Shown here: positions 7,324 to 59,358 of the stretch, piece by piece
How the letters are laid out: the number at the start of each line of letters is the position of its first letter
How positions within the stretch are numbered: position 1 is the stretch's first letter
From: an uncultured Gammaproteobacteria bacterium
GTDB taxonomy: Bacteria; Pseudomonadota; Gammaproteobacteria; SZUA-229
DNA length: 64,000 nt
Assembly (NCBI GenBank): GCA_963803185.1
Contig: CAWDMF010000039.1
Span: 8,337 to 72,336, forward strand
Reading direction: 5' to 3'
Translations under genes and position numbers: made by a program
The notes under the pieces: model-generated
Database searches by the model: none
Seen by the model: the letters and a program-made list of their open reading frames with translations, nothing else
Told to the model about the DNA's origin: nothing

Positions 7324-7851
7324 TTATCACTGCTCTCCCGAATGGCACTAAGTAAAGCTATATTTGCAAGAATCCGGGACATGAACCGGGCGCAGCCAGC
7401 AACGACACGCCGTGAAACCGTCCATGGTGGCTCAACACCCGCATCCCTGCGGGTGATGGTCGTTGCCAACTGCGCTCGGTTCACATCCCTTGCAGTTATC
7501 GTGACAGCAGTTTATGTTGCTAAGTTATTGAAAGACCATACGAAGTACTCTTAACTTAGTGCCATTCACTGCTGTCCCGTTAACTTTGCTGAGTTGTTTA
7601 CAACTCTTACACTGTCTGGAAGATGCAATATTTATACTATACGAGACATGAATTGGGATTCGTTGCCTGAGACACGCTGTCCATGAAGATAAAAACATGG
7701 CGTCCATGTACGCTCGGATGCCGCTCCGACCACCATGGACGGTGGAAGTGTAGGTTTTGCAGGAGCAAAAACCTGCCATGAGGCATACGGTCTCAGGCAA
7801 CGGATCCCATTCCATGCCTCTAACAGTTAACAAATTAGCAGTGACTAATTA
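7321..7851. mobile_element. Nested composite of non-autonomous palindromic elements
   Basis: IR GAATGGCACTAAGT (7340-7353) / ACTTAGTGCCATTC (7554-7567) flanked by ACTGCTSTCCC direct repeats; inner long hairpins; about 125 bp recur near-identically at 10626. Confidence 0.75.
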
Positions 7852-7881
7852 TATGTAAAAGCTGTGATGAAAAATATTTTT

Positions 7882-7972
7882 AAGCGCAGAGGCGCGGAGA
7901 CGGAGAGAAAAGCTTTTGATTGTTAATTTCGTCTACGACGGAATAACAATAAATCTCTGCGTCTCTGCGCTT
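7882..7972. repeat. GCAGAG-type palindromic intergenic repeat
   Basis: AAGCGCAGAGGCGCGGAGA ... TCTCTGCGTCTCTGCGCTT with inner ATTGTTA..TAACAAT hairpin; relatives at 41839 and 50284. Confidence 0.75.
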
Positions 7973-7978
7973 CAATGT

Positions 7979-8726
7979 TTATGTCTTATTAGTTAGTAGT
8001 TCTCGTGCTTTTTTTAAATCTTCCGGCGTGTCTACCGCCAGTCCCTGGTAATCATCCAGTGTGCTCACATTAATAGCAATGTCATTTTCCAGGGCACGCA
8101 GCTGTTCCAGCTTTTCGGTTTGTTCCAATGGTGTTTGTTGTAAACGCATTAGTCGGGTCAATGTTTCACGTGTGTAGATATAAACCCCAATATGTATCTG
8201 ACCCTTATCAGCAATGTCACCGTTTTGTTTTACCGGGATCATATTTCTGGAAAAATACAGTGCATTGCCGCTTGTCGACGTTACGACTTTAACATTGGAA
8301 GGCGCAGATAGTACGGCTTTGTCTGTGCACCAGTGTGACAGTGTGCCCATTTGTGGATTCTTCTGGTTGATGAATTTACTGATTAACTGGTCAATATGGT
8401 CCGGGTTTAGAGTGACTTCATCACCCTGTATATTGACGAAAATGTCGGCATCAGACTGTTGCATAAATTCAGCGATGCGATCGGTGCCTGAGGCACAGTT
8501 TTCAGATGTCATGGTTACGTTATGACCCGCCGATGATATAACATCGTAAATACGCTGGTCATCAGTTAAAACAACTACATCAGATAACGCAGATGACTGT
8601 TTGGCTTTTTCAACAACGTGCAGGATCAATGGGTTTTCCTGCAATGTCACTTAATGGCTTTCCAGGTAATCGTGTTGATGCGTATCGTGCGGGGATACAG
8701 CCGATAATCTTGTGTTGCGAAGACAT
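7979..8726 (-). CDS. kdsB: 3-deoxy-manno-octulosonate cytidylyltransferase (frameshift near 8632)
   Basis: Upstream frame from ATG 8726 gives [18 protein letters not shown] 7979-8650 gives [32 protein letters not shown]. Confidence 0.92.
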
Positions 8727-9814
8727 TATTGGTTCTCAATTATTTTATCTATTTGTTTGATCACATCGTTGATAGTAATCAGTGTCATACATTCCGCAGT
8801 TTTGACGCGTTCACCCCAGGCAGCATCATCGACTGTTTTTTTATTGTACTTTAACAGGGCCTGCGGATATTTGTTGACAACATATTGTTTGTGATTGTAG
8901 GGGCCGGCACGATCGGGATTGGTTGACGCATATAAACCAATAGTGTCTGTGCCCAGGGCACTGGCGATATGCACCGGCCCGGTATCCGGAGCCAGTACTA
9001 TGTCGGCCAGGTGCAATATGGCGACAAGTTCATCAATGCTGGTTGAGGCGATCAGGTTAACGGGGTTAGACAGTTTACATAATGAAAGGATCTCTTCTGC
9101 GGTGTCTTGTTCAAGCTGGCTGTTGCCACCGGTTAGTACCACCTGCATATTGTGTTGATTACTTACATAATCGGCGATTGCAGCATAACCTTTGCTGGTC
9201 CAGTTGCGCCAGTTTTTTGATTTTGCAACAGCACAGGGATTTATAATAAACAGCTTTTTACTTGTTTGGAGTCGCGTAGTTATAACCTCAATAGCAGGCT
9301 GTGCAACAGGTAGTTGCCAGCTCAGTAACGGTTGCAGACCAAAATAACGTGGAAATTCAAGAAAGCTGTCCAGCACATGCTGTTTTGTTGAATCAGGCAT
9401 GATCTGATGATTGCAAAATAAAGACTGTAAATCCTTGGCACGTTTTTTATCAAAACCAAGCTTGATAGTTGCCGGTATAAATATACTGGCGACAGAGGCA
9501 CGAATTGACAACTGCATGTGCAGCAGTACATCAAAAGCCTTGCCCTGGAGATGCTTTTTTATCTGTTTATTCAGTTCCCGGTAGGATGAAAAACCTGCAG
9601 ATTTATCAAAAATTATAAAGTTTATATTGTCGATGGCTTTAACCAGCTGGTATTCTGATTTACCAATAATCCAGGTTATTTTTGTCGTCGGCCAATGTTT
9701 TTGTAAGGTTCGCAAAGTCGGCAAAACATGCGTAATATCGCCCAATGCGGACAATCGAAGCAGACATAATGTTTCTGGCGGATTAGCGCTGGAAAATGTC
9801 TGTGAAGGTGTCAT
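8726..9814 (-). CDS. Glycosyltransferase family 9 (LPS heptosyltransferase-like)
   Basis: RLSALGDI and [14 protein letters not shown] motifs; LPS cluster context. Confidence 0.9.
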
Positions 9815-57303: not shown

Positions 57304-57700
57304 ATTTACCGAGTTAGAGTCAATTTGTTAGAAGAATTGATTGTCAGCCACTGGATGCTTTAAATTGACTTCGATCTCATTCCAGAATTATATAACCAGA
57401 CAATAGTTGTATTTTTGTATAGTTTTAAAAATCAGAGAATAAGCGTGGCCAACCGCTTAGATCCTGGTTTGATAGTTTATGCAACCAGTTTTCTACCAGT
57501 ATCTGTTTGTTGTTGTTCGTTGCTGCATAAACCACCTGCAGCTGCTGTAGAGTCATCAGGCTATTCTTAACATCGCCTAATTGATGGTGAATAATAAAGC
57601 GCAAGAGAAACTTAAAGCTACTAATTAAGTCGGTTATGTTAAGGCTGGTTTAAATGACTAGATTTGATCATAGCTATCTTGACTATTATTCGCCATAGTT

Positions 57701-57809
57701 GCTATTAAAAATAGTCAAAAATGCGGCGGCACGAACTGGCAAACTTTTTTACTTTGTGTAAACTGCACTTTTTATGCCTATGCTAGTGTTAATGCTGACC
57801 TTGCCTTGA
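57701..57809. repeat. Degenerate body of the 46103/47049 element
   Basis: AAAATGCGGCGGCACGAACTGGCAAACTT...TGTAAACTGCACTTTTTA...TTGCCTTG. Confidence 0.65.
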
Positions 57810-57886
57810 CAAAAAAATACACTTGTATAGAGGTCTCAGTTTGATATCACGTACCAGCTTGGCACAAAAAAGCGCATAATTATCAT

Positions 57887-58996
57887 ATGTTGAAAACGCT
57901 TCACAAATGGATGTTGATTACATTACTACTGATACTTTCCTGTAGTCAGATAGCACATGCCCAAAAGAAGCTATATCAATCTGATGGTAAGCTGCCGTTT
58001 GTCGAGATGATGATGAATATGATGTCGGCAATGGGGATTATAGATAAGTTGCCTGCCAATGGTGCCTACGGTGGTTACGGGCAATCCGGTTTGTCTAACC
58101 CGTATGCTCGGGCACTGGCAATGCGGGGCATGTCGCCCGGCTTGCTCAATTCCGGCTATGGCAATAATCCTTTTATGCGTTCTCCGTGGTTGCAAACACC
58201 CTGGTCTTCATCCGCCCTGAACGGTTCAAATTTGAATACTGCAAGCCCTATCTGGGGCACTCCGGACTGGGGTGTTTTGCCATTAGATAATTTTGCGTCA
58301 AATTATTATTCAAGGTATAACCCGTATGGCTCTTCATTGCCATGGTCTACATCCGATTTAGATGGCTGGGTTAATGAAACCTGGGAAACATCGTTATGGA
58401 ATCCCCGGTCTGAAAGACCCGTGCAGGCAGAACCTCAGTCGAAGCAGCCGAAGGTACCGCTGGTGCAAAATTTCAACTATAACGTGCCAGACAATCCAGC
58501 GGCTAACGCGCAACATCAAACGCGCCAGAGAAGCAGTAAGCAATCTCCATTGTCAAACCTGGCTCCACCGAACAGGCCGCCGGGGAGGCAGCAGGCGCAG
58601 CAACCTGCCCAGGCAACGGCTTCGCAACAAAGAAAACAATCGCCTTTGCATAAAAAAAATGAGCTGAATATCAGGCAAAAACCCTGTGTTACTGATTTTT
58701 GTGGTTTAAAAAAGCCCGACTTAAATGGTTTGTGGGTGGCTGAAAATGGTGAAATGCTGGGGGTGAAAAATAAACGCTATTTATGGAGTGACAGCAACGA
58801 ACGTTATTTAACCGGTGAACTTCTGATAGAGAACGAATATTTACTGACCAGTGTTGATGGTCATGAGAAGATAATGCGTTTTAAATATAAGTTCGCAGGC
58901 AATCATTTGTTAACCATGACACCTGATGGGACCATTCGTGAATTTGTTAGAATACCTGTTCAGAGTATTCGTAATCAATATTACGGTCAATGGTAA
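57887..58996 (+). CDS. Hypothetical secreted protein with Trp/Pro/Gln-rich low-complexity linker
   Basis: Signal peptide ending AHA; 369-aa ORF; C-terminal LNGLW...GE.L beta domain. Confidence 0.7.
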   Translation: MLKTLHKWMLITLLLILSCSQIAHAQKKLYQSDGKLPFVEMMMNMMSAMGIIDKLPANGAYGGYGQSGLSNPYARALAMRGMSPGLLNSGYGNNPFMRSPWLQTPWSSSALNGSNLNTASPIWGTPDWGVLPLDNFASNYYSRYNPYGSSLPWSTSDLDGWVNETWETSLWNPRSERPVQAEPQSKQPKVPLVQNFNYNVPDNPAANAQHQTRQRSSKQSPLSNLAPPNRPPGRQQAQQPAQATASQQRKQSPLHKKNELNIRQKPCVTDFCGLKKPDLNGLWVAENGEMLGVKNKRYLWSDSNERYLTGELLIENEYLLTSVDGHEKIMRFKYKFAGNHLLTMTPDGTIREFVRIPVQSIRNQYYGQW

Positions 58997-59358
58997 AAGA
59001 AAGTTGTCAGTTTAAAGAAGTTATAAGTTGGCAGTTATCAGTTAAAAACGCACTGGAATCGTTCCTCGGCAATTGCTCCATGCATTGCCCTACTAAGTGA
59101 CATCCATGTCACGAAGACGATTCTCAGCATACGACCCACATGGATGTGGGGAGTGCGGAAAATGCAGGAGCAATTTTCAGTCACGCCATCTGTGGAGATA
59201 AAAACTGCTTGAGAAGATTTATGTGATTTTAAATAACGCAACGCAACTGCCAACTGCCAACTGCCAACTGCCAACTGCCAACTGCCAACTGCCAACTGCT
59301 GAGCAAACTCAACTGCCAACTGCCAACTGCCAACTGCCAACTGCCAACTTTCTTTTAC
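58993..59358. mobile_element. Heptamer-based palindromic element filling a convergent intergenic gap
   Basis: GTAAAAGAAAGTTG / CAACTTTCTTTTAC termini include both flanking TAA stops; contains two GGA modules and the (CAACTGC)n tract. Confidence 0.72.
59244..59349. repeat. Tandem heptamer repeat (CAACTGC)8 + (CAACTGC)5
   Basis: Counted directly; 10-bp interruption at 59300-59309. Confidence 0.95.

Follow-up and report, generated by a model that had tools for sequence, protein, structure and literature searches.

The window, a stretch of 64,000 nucleotides from the draft genome of an uncultured gammaproteobacterium of the SZUA-229 lineage (assembly GCA_963803185.1, contig CAWDMF010000039.1; G000:C39:8337-72336), carries many short hairpins whose loop contains GGA, a context resembling the binding sites of the RNA regulator CsrA/RsmA. 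These hairpins are probably the structural units of a superfamily of tiny, non-coding, selfish mobile repeats, whose anatomy fits movement as a single strand better than it fits a function in CsrA binding; the latter property is probably secondary.

Occurrence and covariation of the GGA-loop hairpins

The original prediction listed nine such hairpins in the window, and all nine are present in the sequence. Eight of them are perfect stems of at least 5 bp with hexaloops, at the places and with the loops then given (7436-7455 on the minus strand, 7730-7745, 29375-29398, 29563-29584, 47287-47302, 56054-56069 and 59097-59112, both on the minus strand, and 59135-59150), and the ninth (AAAACAC-AGGAC-GTGTTTT, 29063-29081), which was read directly off the sequence, has a loop of five nucleotides. 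Five further hairpins of the same kind lie at 7755-7770, 10733-10752, 17772-17787, 56088-56103 and 56200-56219; the one at 17772-17787 reads ATACC-AGGGAT-GGTAT and stands about 90 nt past thiC.

An unbiased scan of the whole draft genome (3.38 Mb in 68 contigs, about 43% G+C, 95% complete and 2.5% contaminated), in which no loop was named and all perfect stems of at least 5 bp with 6-nt loops were collected, returned 5162 hairpins. The loops at the top of this collection are ATGGAT/ATCCAT (133), ACGGAT (52), TAGGAA (48), AGGGAT (40), ATGGAC (28), ATGGAA (23) and AAGGAT (19), each at 10-60 times its hexamer expectation. Perfect 5-bp hairpins with an ANGGAY loop number 288 genome-wide against 13.4 expected; 264 are intergenic, whereas 20 dinucleotide shuffles of the intergenic DNA yielded 3.1 on average (sd 2.0, maximum 8), and the enrichment that had been anticipated is thus confirmed. 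Among the 462 hairpins with an NNGGAN loop the closing pair is C-G in 320, and 112 distinct inner 5-bp stems occur.

Covariation was followed in 29 copies of one family, C0, gathered by sequence similarity and not by structure. In their two ANGGAY hairpins 96.9% of the cells are paired, against 81.8% in shuffles, a value that none of 500 shuffles reaches, and pairing falls to 50% or less when the stem partners are slid. Cells changed on both sides number 33 (9.4 in shuffles), with AU, UA, GC and CG all found at one position; the stems, as first reported, vary and yet stay complementary. In hairpin 1 of 130 distinct modules, described below, G-U mismatches number 14 and A-C mismatches 3, a count that is not circular because the selection rule admitted any single mismatch. 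This excess, together with the paired changes, indicates that the fold is maintained on the GGA strand as a single strand, of either RNA or DNA. A relaxed count over stem positions 4-6, where position 6 is often unpaired, gave 143 G-U against 84 A-C for all hairpins and 80 against 77 for distinct hairpins only; across 155 repeat regions the GGA-richer strand was not the better folder (Spearman -0.04, p=0.65), the regions being mosaics and the test hence a blunt one.

The repeats and their two-hairpin module

Self-comparison of the genome, with a depth of at least 3, defines repeats that cover 134 kb (4%). They contain 353 of the 462 NNGGAN hairpins, against 194 of 4700 other hairpins, and 258 of the 288 ANGGAY hairpins. 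In unique DNA the ANGGAY hairpins number 17 against 10.5 expected, a near-zero excess that gives no sign of independent GGA hairpins dispersed through unique untranslated regions. The families carrying the hairpins had been called unrelated; this was wrong, since they are mosaics of shared modules, with one single-linkage similarity component holding 513 of the 670 repeat regions and the 11 commonest flank classes taking in 260 of the 462 hairpins (among them CGA...AAGT with 77, TGA...AAAT with 40 and TAG/CAG...CTTG with 42).

The basic unit is a two-hairpin module of about 51 nt. In hairpin 1 a variable 5-bp stem, with C-G as its closing pair, surrounds an A-N-G-G-A-Y loop, with YGA before the stem and AAR-T after its return arm; hairpin 2 has a variable stem around AGGA or UAGGAA. 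A structural regular expression (YG[A/C], a 5-nt stem, ANGGAY, a return stem matching in at least 4 of 5 positions, then RAR-T) matches 187 modules (130 when identical ones are counted once), which occur singly, head to tail with 51- or 102-nt periods, within each other, and as cargo of larger carriers. In the M1 type, of 51 nt, CGA-CCNNC-AYGGAY-GNNGG-AAGTG is followed by a second hairpin around GC-AGGA-GC, whose outer stem changes by pairs (GCAG...CTGC, GCGG...CCGC, GTGG...CCAC, GTAG...CTAC, GTCG...CGAC). The E type, also of 51 nt, reads TGACCTCC...CCTTGC and has AGGATTG-TAGGAA-CAATCCT as its second hairpin.

Insertion of the E module into hairpin loops

For 55 of the 64 left ends of E a right end follows at exactly 51 nt; 17 copies are identical to the consensus, and the median pairwise identity is 94%. 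The eight unpaired left ends include variant 51-mers, no pair of E ends lies further apart in the genome, except one chance pair at 28.5 kb, and nowhere in the assembly is a right end of E joined to a left end. Of 57 copies, 46 are preceded by CATC and 46 are followed by CATG, and the two flanks form a stem of at least 4 of 5 bp in 45, which places E within the loop of another GGA hairpin, split between ATG and GAT; joining the flanks restores ATGGAT without duplication in 38. Six stem types are found among the host hairpins, which stand in two contexts of very different kind, one being hairpin 1 of M1 and the other the CGTTAC unit; E is always antisense to its host. At either end of E a hairpin lies 3 nt in, and both inverted ends and a target duplication are lacking. 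E thus bears the signature of non-autonomous IS200/IS605 elements, namely no terminal inverted repeats (TIR) or target-site duplication (TSD), subterminal hairpins, a single orientation and a short conserved flank.

The length of the insert in split ATG...GAT hairpins shows peaks at 51 (38), 102 (11), 153 (11) and 204 nt (8), whereas control triplet pairs give no insert-length peak above 13. Contigs C16, C54, C41, C17 and C27 hold arrays, made of an M1 host with E where the period is 102 and of M1 only where it is 51. Filled and empty sites occur on one backbone of a MITE (a transposable element of the miniature inverted-repeat kind): copies C12_46348, C29_13021 and C3_28705 have an intact CGTTAC-ATGGAT-GTAAC, which in copies C10_64527 and C6_26692 is split by E. 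M1, too, stands in hairpin loops in several copies, those of family A (CACCCGC-ATC^CCT-GCGGGTG) and family B (ATGCCGC-TC^CAT-GCGGCAT), two foldback families described below.

The window itself holds an E module of 51 nt at 56172..56222 on the plus strand (TGACCACC...CCTTGC), which splits the minus-strand hairpin CCCAC-ATG^GAT-GTGGG, with stem halves at 56165-56169 and 56226-56230. Metagenome contigs that omit exactly these 51 nt were found, two in X1 and one in X2; they may stem from other host copies or organisms.

From this anatomy, E may be supposed to move via a folded single strand, in the "peel-and-paste" style of HUH enzymes or with the help of an as yet unrecognised enzyme. In that case hairpin and loop together would act as recognition signal and landing pad alike, which would account for loops that stay constant while the stems drift by paired changes.

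Carriers and the TwoAYGGAY match

One carrier is an IS5-type MITE with 90 ends of no more than 3 mismatches and a basal form of 241 bp. Its paired ends show terminal inverted repeats and a 4-bp YTAR target duplication (CTAA/TTAG, CTAG/CTAG, TTAA/TTAA), as in the IS5 family; five DDE_Tnp_1 matches are present in the genome, none of them linked to this MITE in the analysis. Larger copies gain M1, then a 34-nt unit, then E, at fixed points, giving clean empty and filled pairs, and since the basal form has no GGA modules, these must have entered the MITE secondarily. A MITE copy of 180 bp with one AUGGAG-loop unit (G000:C40:2988-3167) splits a gene resembling a REP-associated tyrosine transposase (RAYT; REP, repetitive extragenic palindrome); the copy has perfect 23-bp ends including TTAA, and its excision restores the frame ...RKDDDIKDVARYIVANPLRAGLV.

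Further carriers are the foldback families A and B, described below, and element F. The latter spans about 720 nt of the window (28924..29646, plus strand), with 59-nt inverted arms that are 85% complementary, and encloses a TwoAYGGAY core and flanking two-hairpin pieces; genome-wide, the core is present in about 9 copies and the ends in 14-22. The core (29329..29479, plus strand) matches the TwoAYGGAY motif RF01731 with 68.7 bits, the gathering score being 43, and consists of a basal stem with the hairpins AAATTCGCC-AGGGAT-GGCGAATTT and GCGCC-TGGAC-GGCGC. One flanking piece of 75 nt (29009..29083, plus strand), with ATTTTGC-CGGGA-GCAAAAT and AAAACAC-AGGAC-GTGTTTT, is a direct repeat of 29513-29585, which carries TGAATAAC-ATGGAT-GTTATTCA. 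Two loops on a basal stem are found both in element F (AGGGAU and UGGAC) and in family A (AUGGAC and AGGGAU); the 51-nt modules have one ANGGAY loop and one AGGA loop, and no basal stem.

The core is the sole Rfam match of the window at the gathering threshold, and the whole genome has 6 RF01731 matches over the cut-off and 10 at E<=0.01. The original prediction had itself stated that a match to a catalogued family would remove its novelty, and part of that novelty is indeed lost, for one element of the window and six copies in the genome; most of the hairpins, however, fall outside this family.

The match also bears on an alternative in which a structured RNA, TwoAYGGAY with its relatives, would have an RNA function other than CsrA binding (stabilisation, termination or processing) and would be passive cargo of DDE-type MITEs. 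A genuine RF01731 match, carriers with inverted ends and duplications, covarying hairpins and a hairpin density that is highest in convergent spacers suit this explanation; on the other hand, E has a fixed length of 51 nt with neither TIR nor TSD, the basal 241-bp MITE is free of modules, tandem arrays of 51 and 102 nt lie outside any carrier, and orientation is random. We regard it as decidedly improbable.

Presence and absence between genomes

The comparison covered 33 genomes of the genus and 399 other Gammaproteobacteria of at least 90% completeness. In the window, the spacer between mreC and mreB contains an inserted composite of about 130 nt (44775..44906), which consists of a degenerate M1-like host on the minus strand, split by an E-like 51-mer on the plus strand (44829-44879); its boundaries are accurate to within 5 nt, because ATTGC stands on both sides. 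It is absent from all four matched relatives (G005, G011, G024 and G007), the flanking genes of G005 being 93-94% identical at the DNA level. G005 alone has element F at the orthologous site, in a form without the 75-nt two-hairpin piece (29009-29083; query 710-784) but otherwise collinear. In G011, G007 and G004, where F is absent from the site, the flanking genes stand 220, 105 and 208 nt apart, against 974 nt here, and each of these genomes holds dozens of F copies at other loci. For the locus 54000-57300 the ortholog is missing in G005, and the G016 spacer measures 232 nt against 1768 nt and is too divergent for exact junctions.

The repeats are present in 31 of the 33 genus genomes; the repeat query found no match in G023 (99% complete) and G002, and the copy number of first-look candidates ranges from 5 to 186. 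Beyond the genus, E occurs in 4 of the 399 genomes, which belong to four families, at 85-93% identity, and the exact 29-nt core occurs at 29 loci in metagenome-assembled genomes (MAGs) labelled Sedimenticola, Acidiferrobacterales and others, among which binning errors are possible. In the closed genome G054, with one matching stretch, E splits GTAC-ATG^GAT-GTAC, 8 nt past a stop codon, and in G176 it splits CGCCTAC-ATG^AAT-GTAGGCG; these two genomes represent two further families of Gammaproteobacteria. In Sedimenticola-labelled MAGs E stands between hairpin 1 and the GAAGTG of an M1, and the loop is therefore a preferred site but not the sole one. The description of the hairpins as portable modules has proved sound, given their polymorphism between species, the splitting of the RAYT gene by a MITE of the mosaic, and the filled and empty paralogous MITE copies.

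Possible binding of CsrA

At the sequence level the module loops agree with the consensus of CsrA/RsmA sites, with ANGGAY, GGA in the loop and a C-G closing pair; the published hairpin consensus for CsrA is (A/U)CANGGANG(U/A) (PMC4333381). The search for csrA suggested earlier was successful: a canonical CsrA (MLILTRRVGETLMIGD...), of 61 aa when counted from the first Met of a 71-aa ORF, is encoded after an aspartokinase gene. A second, degenerate CsrA-like open reading frame (ORF) of 52 aa (Pfam CsrA, 52.9 bits) lies near the end of contig C50 (L002:844-1002).

A candidate Csr/Rsm sponge small RNA (sRNA) was also located (G000:C19:24124-24403, minus strand). A palindromic box (TGTAAGGATTTCCCTACA), which may be akin to the Gac-type box TGTAAG-N6-CTTACA, is followed some 45 nt further downstream by CATAAT; then come GGA motifs, of which at least 12 are invariant while their neighbours vary, and an intrinsic terminator. 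The candidate is single-copy in 26 of the 33 genus genomes, at 70-89% identity; in G005 and G028 a second paralog exists. No Rfam family matches the candidate. Its GGA contexts, AUGGAU, ACGGAU and AAGGAC among them, are those of the repeat loops, which makes it plausible that CsrA would bind transcribed modules. A transcript reading a module in the GGA sense would present textbook CsrA-type sites, so that CsrA binding and some titration would be likely side effects rather than what maintains the elements. If hundreds of hairpins are transcribed, the free CsrA pool could still shift, and the candidate sponge offers a yardstick for this.

A different matter is whether binding is what selection maintains, the hairpins being dispersed sponges or portable sites in untranslated regions and mobility a mere means of spread. 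Such a view accords with the ANGGAY loops and C-G closing pairs, with the canonical CsrA gene, with a genus-conserved candidate sponge of like GGA contexts, with the preference for G-U over A-C on the GGA strand and with the repeat contigs of an RNA library. Moreover, the Rfam clan of TwoAYGGAY is CL00106, presumably that of the Csr/Rsm sRNAs. "Multivalent Csr/Rsm sponges" have been proposed in a recent preprint (Li et al. 2026, bioRxiv 10.64898/2026.09.22.753630).

However, orientation to the neighbouring genes is mixed, as had been noticed in the window: in co-directional spacers 84 hairpins are sense and 92 antisense or, counted by region, 51 and 51. Per kb, convergent spacers hold 0.56 hairpins, co-directional ones 0.44 and divergent ones 0.28. 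With no orientation bias, next to no excess outside the repeats, and insertions of modules that destroy GGA loops, the idea of CsrA sites scattered in cis through untranslated regions is not supported. In addition, half of each nested pair is antisense, copy number varies widely in the genus, and G023, unmatched by the repeat query, keeps its single-copy candidate sponge. The repeats also differ from sponge genes in their hundreds of copies, random orientation and presence or absence between species, and RF00166 and RF00018 gave no match over the cut-off. CsrA binding of the modules is thus plausible as sequence and unsupported as a selected function, a function that we consider unlikely; not every GGA hairpin should be read as a CsrA site.

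Mobilising enzyme and points against mobility

Several observations weigh against the reading of the modules as mobile single-strand elements. The genome has 8 Y1_Tnp matches, and the proposed search for HUH transposase genes flanked by the modules came back empty for all eight; within 800 nt of them there is a single hairpin, which lies some 430 nt away from the broken RAYT. Nor was there a match to IS110 or TnpB in the genome, which, being 95% complete, leaves the absence of a cognate HUH enzyme short of proof. At the IS200-type TnpA loci of four relatives (G005, G025, G022 and G013) the end hairpins are unrelated to the modules, and no longer, ORF-bearing copy with E ends exists in the genome. 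M1 shows no single target (left flanks AATA in 22, CATC in 21, CAGC in 12, and others), and many M1 copies are mere parts of larger repeated units. Many composites of host and E may have been copied as a block, so that independent insertions are far fewer than 57. With GC skew as proxy on draft contigs, the replication-strand bias appears weak, 62:38 for M1 (p=0.02, copies being non-independent through arrays) and 15:24 for E, whereas it is strong in IS608-type elements. The spacer orientation and density counts rely on gene calls made by ORF heuristics. Finally, the loops fit both the CsrA consensus and the GGA contexts of the candidate sponge, the excess of G-U over A-C is equally expected for RNA, and one metatranscriptome (RNA run X20) has contigs that extend over repeats and part of the next gene, giving neither strand nor level.

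Within the genus no Y1_Tnp type tracks the repeats: of the genomes negative for the repeat query, G023 has two Y1 genes of 239-259 aa and G002 has the 154-aa type. The Y1 proteins of the genus comprise types of 237-268 and 320-350 aa, and an intact RAYT of 154 aa occurs in a relative. The RAYT-like gene deserves separate mention, as the modules might be REP elements, or the hairpin-forming REP doublets called REPINs, mobilised by the RAYT of this genome. Short, mostly intergenic, interspersed palindromes and the presence of Y1_Tnp genes would agree with this, and REP arrays stand beside TwoAYGGAY in Pseudomonas fluorescens SBW25 according to the same preprint (Li et al. 2026, bioRxiv 10.64898/2026.09.22.753630). 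The RAYT-like gene, however, is flanked by its own classical REP/REPIN of a different type, GTAGGAGCG...CGCTCCTAC, and is itself split by a MITE; the modules have no 5' GTAG and, bar the one hairpin mentioned, none lies within 800 nt of a Y1_Tnp gene. With REPs of the GTAGGAGCG type at the RAYT gene, the modules do not qualify as members of a REP/REPIN-RAYT system, and mobilisation of this kind is highly improbable.

The mobile single-strand reading is supported by the insertion signature. Recognition by a single-strand HUH transposase, as first suggested, agrees with the fixed 51 nt, the lack of TIR and TSD, the one orientation and the CATC flank. No cognate enzyme was found, and an HUH-like mechanism is therefore proposed from the insertion signature. 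A bolder and more doubtful extension, which we offer tentatively, is that the AYGGAY hairpin may serve for homing in minimal single-strand transposons of about 51 nt that would form a new class and land in the loop of their own kind; an as yet unrecognised enzyme would mobilise them in trans, perhaps with CsrA, or some other host protein that binds GGA, acting as cofactor. If true, it would explain TwoAYGGAY-type expansions across bacteria and tie the site of a global RNA regulator to selfish DNA.

Other elements and features of the window

Family A is a foldback element at 7329..7530 on the minus strand, with ends CACTGCTGTCCC.../...GGGACAGCAGT and a long basal stem that bears ACC-AUGGAC-GGU and CACCCGC-AGGGAU-GCGGGUG (7436-7455). 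Its ends are CACTGCTGTCCC inverted repeats, copy number varies from 20 to 70 along the element and 29 left ends occur genome-wide. The architecture is TwoAYGGAY-like, yet without an Rfam match: at E<=10, positions 7300-8000 gave no TwoAYGGAY or Csr match, only chance-level ones, for instance to miRNA and snoRNA models. A second copy (10626..10795, minus strand), with its hairpin at 10733-10752, is 98% identical to 7329-7456 over 128 nt and has TTAACCTGG on both flanks, 3 nt out of register.

Family B (7627..7836, plus strand) is likewise a foldback, with arms of about 30 bp (7643-7673 and 7790-7820) around several hairpins. Folding of its two strands gave minimum free energies of -89.5 and -103.9 kcal/mol (z -8.2 and -10.0), with none of 200 shuffles as good. 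The 51-nt M1 module at 7727..7777 on the plus strand, CGA-CCACC-ATGGAC-GGTGG-AAGTG followed by TAGGTTTTGC-AGGA-GCAAAAACCTG, lies inside the loop of the family-B hairpin ATGCC...GGCAT, where other B copies show ATGCCGC-TC^CAT-GCGGCAT.

The G-type unit at 47284..47306 (plus strand) reads TGA-GGCAT-AGGGAT-ATGCC-GAAT, with the hairpin GCCCCGAAGGGG just before it; 16 rows of this type were found, and 66-nt tandem arrays of it exist elsewhere in the genome (the C16 array). An M1 module at 56022..56112 on the minus strand holds in its second hairpin a nested 34-nt unit, CGTTAC-ATGGAT-GTAAC-TTAT..., of family C0 (30 copies). At 59060..59112, on the minus strand, a unit with GTGAC-ATGGAT-GTCAC and GCAAT-GCATGGAGCA-ATTGC is divergent from the 51-nt M1 at 59132..59182 on the plus strand, CGA-CCCAC-ATGGAT-GTGGG-GAGTG followed by CGGAAAATGC-AGGA-GCAATTTTCAG.

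The genes of the window are gammaproteobacterial housekeeping genes (kdsB, waaA, lpxL, tolC, thiC, rep, feoB, mreBCD, gatAB, prfA, hemA). For the Rep helicase, the nearest public relatives (87-94% amino acid identity) come from MAGs of uncultured bacteria from marine and sediment sources, which carry the label Gammaproteobacteria or Thiotrichaceae. Both tolC (13071-14465; 152 and 309 aa) and thiC (15793-17683; 231 and 379 aa) appear as two adjacent ORFs, suggesting a frameshift, a pseudogene or an assembly error. A gene for an OmpA-family lipoprotein contains a 90-nt tandem duplication (34691-34870, 93% identical) that encodes Asp-rich repeats, as translated by eye. A separate repeat family of about 50-60 copies is represented by an element at about 24219-24495 with a perfect 34-bp inverted repeat and an 18-nt spacer (24304-24389), in which GAAGGATC falls within the stem, not the loop. 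A heptamer array of CAACTGC (59244-59349, 15.7 copies) is related to AAGTTATAAGTTGGCAGTTATCAGTTA boxes around moeB/prmC, at 59018-59044, 59808-59834 and 60663-60689.

Comparison with known systems

TwoAYGGAY was listed by Weinberg et al. 2010 (PMC2864571) and was proposed as a CsrA-binding sRNA by Gardner and Eldai 2015 (PMC4333381). In Pseudomonas it has tens to hundreds of copies, an association with REPs and divergent doublets, and a sponge role was put forward beside a "mobile-element-like" expansion, any link being left "unresolved" (Li et al. 2026, 10.64898/2026.09.22.753630). The repeats of this genome are similar in their hairpins with AYGGAY-like loops, which in element F and family A rise from a common stem, and in their many copies, a copy number that varies between relatives, flanking repeats and divergent pairs. 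They differ in that just 6 copies in the genome (1 in the window) attain the family threshold, a small number beside the 288 ANGGAY hairpins, and in that the majority of hairpins sit in two-hairpin modules of 51 nt, which escape detection by Rfam. Loop nesting, 51/102-nt arrays and carriage by MITEs are features found here and not in those portions of the published descriptions that were compared. No description of loop-nesting 51-nt modules, nor of CsrA-type loops in MITEs or REPs, was found in the literature searched. The loop-homing 51-nt unit appears to be a new form of such elements, while both the proposed link to CsrA (2015) and a mobile-like behaviour for TwoAYGGAY (the 2026 preprint) had been published before. 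TwoAYGGAY has been an orphan motif since 2010, with its two published ideas, CsrA sponge and mobile-like spread, so far unconnected. The present genome provides a concrete anatomy, made of a 51-nt unit, an ATG^GAT landing site, carriers, arrays, filled and empty pairs and spread across families, and mobility is therefore directly testable with oligonucleotides and candidate enzymes.

The sponges CsrB, CsrC and RsmX/Y/Z resemble the repeats in their series of short hairpins with GGA in the loop; they are, however, genes of one or few copies with their own Gac-type box, promoter and terminator, whereas the repeats occur in hundreds, unoriented and mostly without box, promoter or terminator. With REPs, bacterial interspersed mosaic elements (BIMEs) and REPINs the modules share the form of short extragenic palindromes, in mosaic clusters that are possible landing sites for mobile DNA, but they have no GTAG foot or RAYT association, and it is the loop that is conserved, not the foot of the stem.

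Modular bacterial MITEs include BOX, Correia and ERIC. The carriers described here are like bacterial MITEs in their inverted ends, YTAR or longer duplications, ability to fold back and position at gene ends, whereas the GGA modules are carried secondarily and move or expand even where such ends are lacking. Non-autonomous derivatives of IS200/IS605, the palindrome-associated transposable elements (PATEs), move by HUH single-strand transposition. E is like them in having no inverted ends or duplication, a hairpin near each end, one orientation, a short flank and precise filled and empty forms; it differs in that no matching TnpA was found, in its apparently weak strand bias, in its length of only 51 nt and in its target, which lies in the hairpin loop of a sister element.

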